This document shows, piece after piece, positions 24,264 to 35,517 of a DNA stretch of 64,000 nt. The DNA comes from Deltaproteobacteria bacterium. Lineage in GTDB: Bacteria > Desulfobacterota > JADFVX01. The notes under the pieces were generated by a model. That model was not told the DNA's origin, searched no databases, and saw only the letters and a list, made by a program, of their open reading frames with translations. Positions within the stretch are counted from its first letter, which is position 1. Every line of letters starts with the position of its first letter. The stretch covers positions 3,654-67,653 of the forward strand of contig JAOUBX010000012.1 in assembly GCA_029860075.1 (NCBI GenBank), read 5' to 3'. The translations under genes were made by a program, and so were the position numbers.

Positions 24264-24704
24264 GTGAATATTGTCGATATATTAGGTGATACCGGTTTTG
24301 TTATGGCCCTTTGTCTTCCGGCGCTGGGCTCTGTCCTCGGCACAAGCGCGGCAGGAATGGCGGCACTTGGTGCATGGAAAAAGTGCTTCCTTGCAAACAG
24401 GACGGCCCCATTCATCATGGTTGCTTTTGCCGGAGCGCCTCTTTCGCAAACCATTTACGGCATGATCCTTATGAATGCCCTTATGGGCGCCGGGGGGACG
24501 GCAGCAGATGTCAAGTTCAGTGCAGGCCTCTTTGGTGGTCTTGCCATGGGAGCTTCAGCCTGGTTACAGGGTAAGGCCGGGGCACTTGCTTCCGATGCGC
24601 TGTCCGAATCGGAAAAAGGGTTCGGAAACTACATCATGGTTATCGGTATTATTGAGACAGTGGCCCTCTTCGTTATGGTATTTCTCATGACGGCCCTTAA
24701 GTAG
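24264..24704 (+). CDS. atpK: V-type ATP synthase subunit K (proteolipid c-subunit)
   Basis: GTG start one nt after the atpI stop. It has Gly/Ala-rich TM hairpins with the conserved ion-binding Glu (GIIETVALF). Confidence 0.8.
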   Translation: MNIVDILGDTGFVMALCLPALGSVLGTSAAGMAALGAWKKCFLANRTAPFIMVAFAGAPLSQTIYGMILMNALMGAGGTAADVKFSAGLFGGLAMGASAWLQGKAGALASDALSESEKGFGNYIMVIGIIETVALFVMVFLMTALK

Positions 24705-24887
24705 TTTTCATCGGTCAAGGGTGCTTTTTCGCAATCTCTACGTCAATCTTCGGCTTTGCTTGTGCCATGTACAGTAGTACAACTCGGCGAAACCCTTGAT
24801 TTCCTTGACCTTGCAAAAAATCCCTCATTTCCGAATTGAAAACAAAGTTTCATTTATTATAGTTTCCGGATGGACACTAAGTAAAAG
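24697..24887. mobile_element. MITE-like repeat, copy 1. It has a degenerate 3' terminal inverted repeat and carries a ~42-nt internal insertion.
   Basis: About 85-90% identical to 34987-35129 over ~140 nt. It begins at the atpK stop codon. It shares the 5' end TTAAgTAGTTTTCATCGGTCAAGGGTGC and the 3' end GATGGACACTAAgTAA with copy 2. Confidence 0.45.
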
Positions 24888-25255
24888 AGAACGCATATTC
24901 AAAGATGCTCTAAAAAGCCGCAGGAAGCGCCTAAAGGCTCGAAAAATCCGGGCCATACCGGCAGCTTGCAGGGGCGCTTGTGCTGTAAACCATGAACTGC
25001 CGCCGCTTCCAGCTTCAACTGAGGTTGTGTGGCGAGATTATGGGCGGGTCTTTGTCCTGATGGCAGTCTTTTTTCACTCGCTTCCCCTCTCCCGGAATGT
25101 CCTTCCGAAAAATTAAGAGGCTTTTTCCGGCTTCCAATCTCCCGGATAATGAAAGAATATGTCAAAAAAAAGGGGTAGACTGGAAGGGAATAAAGTTATA
25201 ATATATGAAGGTTTTACTGTCTTGTTACTATCACTGTTTGAATAAAGGAAATGCT

Positions 25256-31779: not shown

Positions 31780-32138
31780 ATGAAAAGGGGATGACTAAGC
31801 CAAGTCATCCCTTTTTTTATGGTGAAACAAATCCTTTTCCGATCCTGCTTTCTTGCGCAAGCCCCGGATTTGACAGTAATGAGCCGGGTGATTGCTTAAG
31901 TTGCAATGTAAAGTCAGGATTTTTTGAGAGTGTTGCCAAAGCAATCGCTTGCATTCTCTCTTTATGCCAGGTTCCCTTTCCCTGAATCCCCGTCCGGTCC
32001 ATTTCCCCCGTGTATCGGGATAAATGGGGAGGCTGGTCTTTGCGCTCATGCTCGCTATTGGCGTGGAGCGCAGCCCGAAAAGACAAAAAAGTACATCTTT
32101 CGCCTGTTTCGGGATTATCTGTCGGAGATGAGCACAAA

Positions 32139-33083: not shown

Positions 33084-33374
33084 AGTCCCGTATTTTATTG
33101 ACGTTTTTAAAAAGAACATGGATATCATAAAATGAAGAAATCTTCAAGGGATTATATGGAAAAGCCTGATTCCCTGCAAGAAAACTTTTATTCTATTTGT
33201 TTGGAAGTAGTGTATTATTAAAGCGTTCGAAAAAATTCTTATTGTTCAAGATACGAGGAGAAATCTTAACGATCTCTCACTACCTTCGAAACAAGTATTC
33301 CTCCTTTTACTCGAAATGACACACTGCTGCAATTGCCTAATCGGACAACAGTGAAGGAAAGATGATAATAAAAT

Positions 33375-33888: not shown

Positions 33889-34845
33889 CTATAAATTTTG
33901 TTTTTTAGCATTATTATGATCTTCTTTGGGCGCTGATTTTTCTTTTGACAACGGGACAGGGATTCCAAGCCCTTCATCAATAATCTTGCGAAAGAACTCC
34001 CCCTCCGGCGTGTCAATCCCTTCTTCCCTGGCCAGTTGACGGGCTTTTTCCCAAATTGTTTCATGGGACAATCCATTTTTATGCACTTCCATATAAAGCC
34101 TGTTTTTAAAATAGCCGAATTTGACAGGAATGTTTACAATTTTAACAGGCATTCCCCGGTAGGCCTTATGGAATAGCCATTTAATATTTTCCCTGGAAAG
34201 TCTTATACAGCCGAGGCTTACCTTTTTGCCTATGCTGGCGGCTTTATTTGTGCCATGAATACCGTAACCTTCAAGGTCCAATTGAATCCAGTAGCGGCCA
34301 AGTGGATTCCTGGCGCCCGGTGGAACTGCCATTGGGAGATAGGGGAAAAATTTTCTCGAAGTCTTCGGTGGAAACCATATGGGATCTTTAAGCTTTTCAG
34401 TCACCCTGAAGTTGCCTGTTGGTGTTTCATATCCGGAACGGCCTATTCCTATGGGAAATGTTCTTATTTGAGTGCTGTCGTAATTTGCCGGCTCAAAAAA
34501 ATAGAGTCTCAGTTCAGCCAGATTAATTAATATCCCTTCATCCATAACAACAGGCAATATCCATGAAGTCGGTATAATGATCTCTTCTCCTGAAACAGGT
34601 CTGTTTGCGTCAATCCGGGGATTGGCTTCTCTAATTTCAATATGACCAACATCATAGACCCTGGCAATTTCCGACAGAGATTTACTCCCGGCATAAATAA
34701 GATTGATGGTTTCACCTATGAGGGGAGGTGCTGATTCATCATTGATTCTATGGATCAAGAAGGATGCCTTGTCAGCAAAACATGTATTAACAAACAGTAT
34801 ATTTATGGTGATAAAAATTAGTAATTGAATCCCCGGCCTGTACAT
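33889..34845 (-). CDS. L,D-transpeptidase (YkuD/ErfK family) with an N-terminal LysM-like domain
   Basis: Start chosen at MYRPGIQLLIF (signal peptide). The catalytic block is HGTN...SLGCIRL. The longer ORF to 34983 is probably an over-extension into the repeat element. Confidence 0.8.
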   Translation of the reverse strand: MYRPGIQLLIFITINILFVNTCFADKASFLIHRINDESAPPLIGETINLIYAGSKSLSEIARVYDVGHIEIREANPRIDANRPVSGEEIIIPTSWILPVVMDEGILINLAELRLYFFEPANYDSTQIRTFPIGIGRSGYETPTGNFRVTEKLKDPIWFPPKTSRKFFPYLPMAVPPGARNPLGRYWIQLDLEGYGIHGTNKAASIGKKVSLGCIRLSRENIKWLFHKAYRGMPVKIVNIPVKFGYFKNRLYMEVHKNGLSHETIWEKARQLAREEGIDTPEGEFFRKIIDEGLGIPVPLSKEKSAPKEDHNNAKKQNL

Positions 34846-34986
34846 TTCCCGCCCTTTATGGGGGGAAGCGGGGAACCTCCCTTGTGCATTCATAGCCCGC
34901 TGCCTGCGGTGAGGTGGCTCGTTAAATAGCGTGTAAAATAAATTAAATGCCATACCTTTTGTTCTGAAGAAAAGTTTTTTCACTCT

Positions 34987-35129
34987 TTAATTAGTTTTCA
35001 TCGGTCAAGGGTGCTTTTTCGCAATCTCTGCGTCAATCTTCAGATTTGCTTGACCTTGCAAAAAATCCCTCCTTTCCAAATTGAAAACAAAGTTTGATCC
35101 ACCATAGTTGACCGATGGACACTAATTAA
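34987..35129. mobile_element. MITE-like element, copy 2 (143 bp, ~22-bp imperfect terminal inverted repeats, TA-rich flanking repeat)
   Basis: The 5' end TTAATTAGTTTTCATCGGTCAA matches the reverse complement of the 3' end (TTAATTAGTGTCCATCGGTCAA), 20 of 22 positions. It has no coding capacity. The flanking direct repeat is TAATTA. Confidence 0.5.
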
Positions 35130-35517
35130 GTTTATCCCGCTGTTGCTAAAAAAATTTAAAAAGAAAACCTTCTATCTTTCCCTCAATGGTTAGCGTATTC
35201 TTATAATGGAAAGAATAACAGAAATTGAATATTTTTCATTAAACTTATGATGTTTTTCAGCTCTTTATTTATGAAATTGTTTGTGACTGAATCCCCGGCA
35301 CTTGTCTTTTCCCCCGTTGATGGAGATAAAGCGGCCGTCTGTCAACCTGCTTATCGTTCTTTATTTTCGGCGGGCAGTTGATTTTAGGGATCCCATTCCT
35401 GTGAATAATAAATAAACAATCTCATTTTTTTATAGATACTCTTTATAGGACATGCTTCATTATGGTATAAAAGGTAAAAATGGATTGATATTTTTCCGAA
35501 AATGCAGGTAAGACTTT

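Follow-up and report, generated by a model that had tools for sequence, protein, structure and literature searches.

The element considered here lies in a 64-kb window, the whole stretch of DNA that was analysed, next to a gene for a YkuD-type L,D-transpeptidase, and a second copy of it adjoins the V-ATPase K-subunit gene. The two are referred to below as copy B and copy A, respectively, and their features are collected in Table 1. The initial annotation had described the former as a 143-bp element with terminal inverted repeats of about 22 bp. The arms are real, as the segments 34987-35008 and 35108-35129, of 22 nt each and separated by 99 nt, are complementary at 20 of 22 positions (91%). 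When the whole 64-kb window was scanned for inverted repeats with 22-nt arms, at least 20 matches and a span of 60-400 bp, this pair was the only one to pass, and no comparable pair occurred in 10 first-order Markov random sequences. The outer part of these arms, however, is the TAATTA direct repeat, which had also been reported and is confirmed on both sides of the element, and the T at 34987 and the A at 35129, at the extreme ends, belong to the flanking target. Between its duplications copy B measures 131 bp. The first two bases of its 5' inverted repeat overlap the 6-bp repeat in Table 1, because readings of the duplication as 2, 4 or 6 bp all yield the same sequence. The flagged copy was said to contain no ORF, which is correct for frames of at least 40 aa. 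The second copy expected 10 kb away is present at 24697-24884, with a length of 188 nt rather than 143.

Table 1. Coordinates of the two element copies and their parts in the 64-kb window (TSD, target-site duplication; MITE, miniature inverted-repeat transposable element)
Feature	Position	Strand	Remark
MITE copy B (flagged), both TSD copies included	34988..35128	+	45-bp internal-deletion derivative of a subfamily-2 copy
Left TSD TAATTA, copy B	34988..34993	.	
Right TSD TAATTA, copy B	35123..35128	.	
5' terminal inverted repeat TAGTTTTCATCGGTCAA, copy B	34992..35008	+	type X arm
3' terminal inverted repeat, copy B, reverse complement TAGTGTCCATCGGTCAA	35108..35124	-	type X arm
Internal hairpin, copy B, arms GGGTGCTTTTTCGCAA (35009-35024) and TTGCAAAAAATCCC (35056-35069)	35009..35069	+	
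Outward-facing sigma-70-like promoter match TTGAAA-16-CATAGT, copy B	35081..35108	+	consensus match only; canonical form TATAGT
MITE copy A, canonical full-length form, both TAAGTA duplications included	24698..24883	+	
Left TSD TAAGTA, copy A	24698..24703	.	only copy of the hexamer at the site in relatives without the element
Right TSD TAAGTA, copy A	24878..24883	.	
5' inverted repeat, copy A	24702..24718	+	type X arm
3' inverted repeat, copy A, reverse complement TAGTGTCCATCCGGAAA	24863..24879	-	type Y arm
Outward-facing sigma-70-like promoter match TTGAAA-16-TATAGT, copy A	24836..24863	+	consensus match only

Both copies belong to a larger family, whose canonical member is a non-coding element of 176-177 bp. 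Copy A is 97.7% identical to the family member in locus L006. Copy B lacks 45 nt that are present in nearly all other members, and outside this deletion it is 96.9% identical to the copy in locus L023. The missing segment, flanked by the short repeats TTTGCTTG and TTTCCTTG, maps to the loop of the internal hairpin (about 35043-35052). In total, we identified the element in 26 places. Besides the two in the window, one lies on a different contig of the source assembly, and the remaining 23 come from the JGI metagenome Ga0224514, where 21 full-length and two truncated copies are spread over 19 contigs. These copies were pooled from the source assembly and from a separate metagenome, whose fetched loci do not overlap the window, and the two sets may come from different species. 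Most were located by an exact 20-mer from the element, which gave 21 matches in JGI metagenomes, 20 of them on 19 different Ga0224514 contigs; the match in locus L012 has nothing beyond the 20-mer in common with the element and was set aside as chance. A profile HMM of the copies added two more in the Ga0224514 loci, namely a second, abutting copy in L007 and a copy in L015 (8786-8924) that is cut to profile positions 1-139 and misses its 3' end. The third copy of the source assembly (L061 9940-10115; ENA ERZ27296429, contig k141_2948265) was found via the small ORF of the element. It is located within a same-strand polysaccharide-synthesis cluster, between the end of one gene (9936) and the start of the next (10153), and part of it had been annotated by the gene caller as a 51-aa protein, P0130.

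The median pairwise identity among the copies is 93.8% (range 83.5-99.4%). All of them are intergenic, in either orientation relative to their neighbours, and several overlap a stop codon. The 3' end faces a gene start in 10 copies and does not in 12, hence there is no orientation bias. Two short-read Logan contigs from the same strain terminate within the window copies, one in each, which is the behaviour expected of a repeat. An exact 22-mer of the element had no match among the GTDB species representatives, so neither the source genome nor another carrier is among them. The 20-mer was likewise absent from IMG/VR, blastn of the element against PLSDB plasmids gave no match, and exact-protein look-ups for strain-level presence or absence returned the same strain only. 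A literature search for the element sequence retrieved no paper.

The boundaries of the copies are uniform. Each begins with TAGTTTTCATC and ends with GATGGACAC or a near variant, and the flanks follow the pattern TANN / TAG…CAC / TANN / TA. The hexamer TANNTA is the same at both ends in 17 of 21 copies, and its central dinucleotide takes nine values (AT, AA, TT, AC, GT, GC, CT, GA and AG). Since NN differs among copies yet agrees within each copy, TANNTA is a target-site duplication and not a part of the element. In the reconstructed targets the hexamer is preceded by C or T in 14 of 17 cases and followed by A or G in all 17, and the target is therefore a near-palindrome, Y-TA-NN-TA-R. The junctions are compatible with a duplication of 6 bp (element GT…AC), 4 bp (AGT…ACT) or 2 bp (TAGT…ACTA), and the sequence fits all three equally well. 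In locus L007, two copies of different subfamilies (823-999 and 1004-1180), 85% identical, form a head-to-tail pair in which TAACTA separates the copies and also borders the pair on both sides; under the 2-bp reading, exactly 2 bp (AC) separate ACTA from TAGT. The shared hexamer indicates that a site made by one insertion was reused by another.

These duplications bear on the parent element, for which an IS5-family or IS630-family insertion sequence had been suggested. MITEs of the IS630/Tc1-mariner type duplicate the TA dinucleotide only. Such a duplication is excluded here, because the repeat takes in the variable NN, and with a TA-only duplication every target would need to have contained NN twice; an IS630-family parent is thus contradicted. 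IS5-type elements duplicate either 3 bp (TNA) or 4 bp (YTAR) and have ends starting with GG or GA. The TANNTA duplication is unlike both, and the ends of the present element start with TAG or GT and have no similarity to those of E. coli IS5, so that an IS5-family parent does not fit either.

The terminal sequence TAGTKTYCATC is common to both ends of all copies, and the identity extends to 17 bp (…GGTCAA) in subfamily-2 copies, including copy B. Further inward, an arm reads either …CATCGGTCAA (type X) or …CATCC[GA]GAAA (type Y), and all of the combinations X/Y, X/X, Y/X and Y/Y are found, suggesting either a requirement for no more than the 11 terminal bases or recombination among copies. Inside the inverted repeats lies the hairpin formed by GGGTGCTTTTTCGCAA and TTGCAAAAAATCCC, and a further small stem (TGTAC…GTACA) is contained in the 45-nt loop segment. 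A structured-RNA repeat had been named initially as something to be checked. Copy B does fold below shuffled controls, with z scores of -5.6 on the plus and -4.2 on the minus strand (-2.1 and -3.7 for copy A). However, RNAalifold on 22 copies gave a covariation term of about zero, and a single compensatory pair (U-A to C-G) was seen in five sequences of one subfamily. A selected RNA structure was rejected on these grounds, and neither window copy had an Rfam hit, whether at the gathering score or at E<=1.

The sole ORF of the element is on the minus strand, where a strong AAGGAGG ribosome-binding site precedes a TTG start and 33 codons that terminate within the opposite inverted repeat. Of 22 copies, 12 have preserved this frame, while the others carry a frameshift, a truncation or no ribosome-binding site. 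In appearance, the frame resembles the start and the end of a vanished transposase gene joined together. A search with the 33-aa relic peptide retrieved only one other ORF call, itself encoded by a MITE. Neither this decayed ORF nor the promoter match shows evidence of selection.

The insertion of copy A can be compared with sites without the element. In the window, the V-ATPase K-subunit gene ends CTT AAG TAG, where the last G (24704) is the first base of the element; excision of copy A together with one repeat gives CTT AAG TAA and leaves the K protein unchanged. Three loci with a K subunit 96% identical to that of the window (L056, L057 and L058) have a single TAAGTA and no element, reading …CTTAAGTAG/GCATAAAA…, in a comparison that is exact on the coding side only, as the downstream intergenic DNA is too diverged for base-by-base alignment. 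Their gene order is that of the window, with V-ATPase D, I and K followed by a hypothetical gene and then by the ExbB/ExbD genes, and the gap between K and the next gene is 190 nt as compared with about 550 nt in the window. The element is absent as well from a relative with 90% identity (L059), and an HMM search of the V-ATPase loci of the relatives found no MITE copy in any of them. For the site of copy B, the syntenic relative L027 (64% protein identity) contains neither the element nor the neighbouring YkuD gene and is too distant to be informative.

The surroundings of copy A hold several minor features. On its 3' side, about 200 nt of G+C-rich intergenic DNA (24885-25100) have no counterpart in the relatives with 96% and 90% identity, where the intergenic region measures 190-236 nt. 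Upstream of the following 198-aa gene there is a block, CAAAAAAAAGGGGTAGACTGGAAGGGAATAAAGTTATAATATA (25165-25215), that is kept in the relatives without the MITE and contains a promoter-like pair TAGACT…TATAAT; judging from this pair, the operon downstream of copy A probably has its own promoter. A spurious ORF of 106 codons on the plus strand (24796-25116) begins within copy A and runs into the flank, and a similar case occurs in locus L008 (4070-4327), so that MITE copies can seed false gene calls.

In our assessment, the flagged stretch is almost certainly a genuine MITE, a shortened copy of a repeat of about 176 bp in uncultured, sulfate-reducer-like delta-proteobacterial bacteria, and its family looks recently amplified. 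This identification rests on the copy number, the sharp ends, the inverted repeats, the duplication with a variable core, the intergenic spread and the absence of the element at the orthologous site of close relatives. The small size, lack of a transposase gene, terminal inverted repeats, differing TSDs, many dispersed copies, and filled as opposed to empty sites are the features by which prokaryotic MITEs are usually defined (PMC10969869, PMC3184786). The initial annotation had drawn the same conclusion and had named as its refutation a family of only two copies without a TSD pattern; the element is instead found in at least 23 places beyond the two in the window, 26 in all, with a variable-core TANNTA duplication in 17 of 21 copies and an element-free site in close relatives. 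As to the mechanism, we infer that the element is mobilised in trans. A DDE-type transposase encoded elsewhere would bind the inverted-repeat ends with their conserved tip TAGTKTYCATC and insert the element at Y-TA-NN-TA-R, and repair of the staggered cut would leave TANNTA on either side. A deletion between the short direct repeats would later have removed 45 bp of the central hairpin loop from copy B. In all likelihood the element is a selfish passenger, and any effect of its promoter-like motif would be a matter of inference as well.

Several alternatives or refinements were weighed against this interpretation. The repeat might not be mobile at all, having arisen instead by duplication of a regulatory region or of a small-RNA gene, or being a palindrome of the REP/PATE type handled by a Y1 (IS200/IS605-like) enzyme. 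It is strongly palindromic and intergenic, and no transposase was found, as this proposal would have it. However, the at least 25 dispersed copies share sharp ends in unrelated contexts, Rfam gave no match, and the element is absent at the same site in close relatives. Moreover, elements of the IS200/IS605 type, including REP/PATE, insert beside a fixed short motif and make no target duplication, let alone direct duplications with a variable core. We regard a non-mobile repeat as highly improbable, and the variable NN duplication effectively refutes it. A second possibility is that some copies of the MITE have been co-opted by the host, with the outward-facing TTGAAA-N16-TATAGT driving the downstream gene or the hairpin acting on mRNA stability or termination. 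The promoter match is 10 of 12 in canonical copies and is positioned about 14 nt inside the 3' end, both window copies are directed at a downstream gene, and copy B folds well below its shuffled controls. Working sigma-70 promoters and RNase III sites are documented in Correia and other MITEs (PMC10969869). Against this, 12 copies do not face a gene start as compared with 10 that do, the promoter motif is conserved no better than other parts of the element, relatives without the element retain the separate promoter-like block that precedes the gene following copy A, and the one compensatory base pair is probably a single event in one subfamily. Co-option appears quite unlikely; if true, the genes concerned by the two window copies would be the ExbB-type operon and the pair formed by a 120-aa gene and a response regulator.

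A further proposal concerns the parent of the MITE, which would be derived from and moved by an IS30-family insertion sequence, such that the duplication is the 2-bp NN, the ends are TAGT…ACTA and TA-NN-TA is a hot spot of the IS30 style. This reading refines the MITE explanation and does not replace it, and we consider it tenable, albeit unlikely. The type X arm matches IRL/IRR of the E. coli K-12 IS30A at 14 of 20 positions in one register (TAGATTCAATTGGTCAAC against TAGTKTYCATCGGTCAA), a score reached by none of 5000 random 20-mers from the window, whereas the E. coli IS1 and IS5 ends match at 6-9 positions (8-9 of 20 for IS5). Widening the comparison with the ends of 14 other IS30-family elements, taken from plasmids, gave 30 ends, compared at 17 offsets; a score of 14 was then attained by 22 of 3000 random 20-mers, corresponding to a p value of about 0.007, which is optimistic because IS30 was picked for its resemblance. 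IS30 generates 2-bp duplications, uses near-palindromic hot spots and inserts beside its own ends to give IRL-IRR junctions (PMC9333248). A 2-bp duplication, within the 2-3 bp of the IS30 family, is one of the possible readings for the present element, its target is near-palindromic, and the 2-bp AC spacer between ACTA and TAGT in the head-to-tail pair of L007 fits an IS30-type junction; the start codon of the relic ORF lies 64 nt from the tip, as compared with 63 nt in IS30. On the other hand, the MITE carries no transposase, the GCAACA motif common to most of the IS30-family ends extracted is missing at the matching position, the tips are TA instead of TG, and the best register sets the terminal TG of IS30 against the variable NN. 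No similarity to the termini of IS30-family proteins was seen in the relic ORF or in the remaining frames, and a relationship is at this stage conjectural.

Searches for the parent itself gave no candidate. No autonomous insertion sequence with matching inverted repeats was found in 250 kb of loci, where the pattern is confined to the MITE copies. The combination of inverted repeat and target pattern had two lone matches among the GTDB representatives (Alteromonas and Ignavibacteriales), which were treated as chance as they have no partner repeat, and the 17-mer inverted repeat had 11 lone matches in IMG/VR, none of them paired. Similarly, tblastn with the E. coli IS30 and IS5 transposases found nothing in the Ga0224514 loci or in about 84 kb of the source assembly, and the absence of an IS30-like gene from these loci counts against an IS30-family parent. 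Two reviews of prokaryotic MITEs do not mention one derived from IS30 (PMC10969869, PMC3184786). That the family is of IS30-type origin and the first such MITE to be described, with a strict Y-TA-NN-TA-R target often overlapping stop codons, a recent spread and some copies perhaps serving as portable promoters, is a composite claim that we find decidedly doubtful. Its component of recent spread would follow from the 92-98% identity between copies of the source assembly and those of Ga0224514, which may be different species.

We know of no sequence similarity between the present MITE and Chunjie of Geobacter uraniireducens (178-235 bp). The two resemble each other in their delta-proteobacterial hosts, their size, their inverted repeats of about 21 bp, and the location of some copies within operons whose genes are undisrupted (PMC3184786, PMC10969869). 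They are set apart by description, as Chunjie is flanked by 9-bp direct repeats (PMC3184786) and the present element by TANNTA. The Correia elements (CREE) of Neisseria, with 104-157 bp, are likewise small, non-coding and intergenic, contain sigma-70-like promoters and a long hairpin, and have outer inverted-repeat bases that merge with a TA-containing duplication (PMC3184786, PMC9330008, PMC10969869). In contrast to the present element, they belong to another host phylum, are unrelated in sequence, and duplicate mostly TA or 3-5 TA-rich base pairs (PMC9330008) instead of a strict TANNTA. Nezha of Anabaena/Nostoc offers a parallel in its inverted and direct repeats, in the comparison of filled and empty sites, and in the absence of a matching insertion sequence from the host genome (PMC3184786). 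Unlike the present MITE, Nezha has a partner, ISNpu3; none was found here in the loci, the GTDB representatives or IMG/VR.

The value of the family is mainly practical, for annotation and assembly of this lineage, and it opens no new biological question. As a repeat, the MITE breaks short-read assemblies of an uncultured lineage, and its copies are liable to be miscalled as small ORFs; insertion polymorphisms could be used for strain typing. With a strict TANNTA target that often falls on stop codons, the family illustrates how a compact genome can become densely populated by a transposon without damage to genes.

In the neighbourhood of copy B, we also observed a local repeat in three copies (31975-32085, 34818-34925 and 35280-35390, all on the plus strand), consisting of the core TGAATCCCCGKC and a further 45-100 nt or so, two of which bracket the MITE. 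Read on the minus strand, two copies of this repeat contain GGGAA-ATG and begin with much the same codons (M-[YD]-R-[PT]-G-I-Q), and the third is without the ATG. One of them is likely the true start of the YkuD-type transpeptidase gene (ATG 34845), and another starts a 61-codon ORF (32002-31817). Rfam searches with the repeat gave nothing at E<=1, and the Ga0224514 loci contain no copy of it. The YkuD-type gene itself (33889-34953) is missing from the otherwise syntenic locus L027 (1891-2360), indicating that the whole segment from a small S4-domain gene to the 120-aa gene is variable. Finally, an intergenic block upstream of the S4-domain gene (33250-33360) is matched in the unrelated Ga0224514 locus L016 (6920-7060), with 86% identity over 57 nt, followed by a 31-nt insertion and a further conserved stretch, and this block may be a leader or a small RNA.
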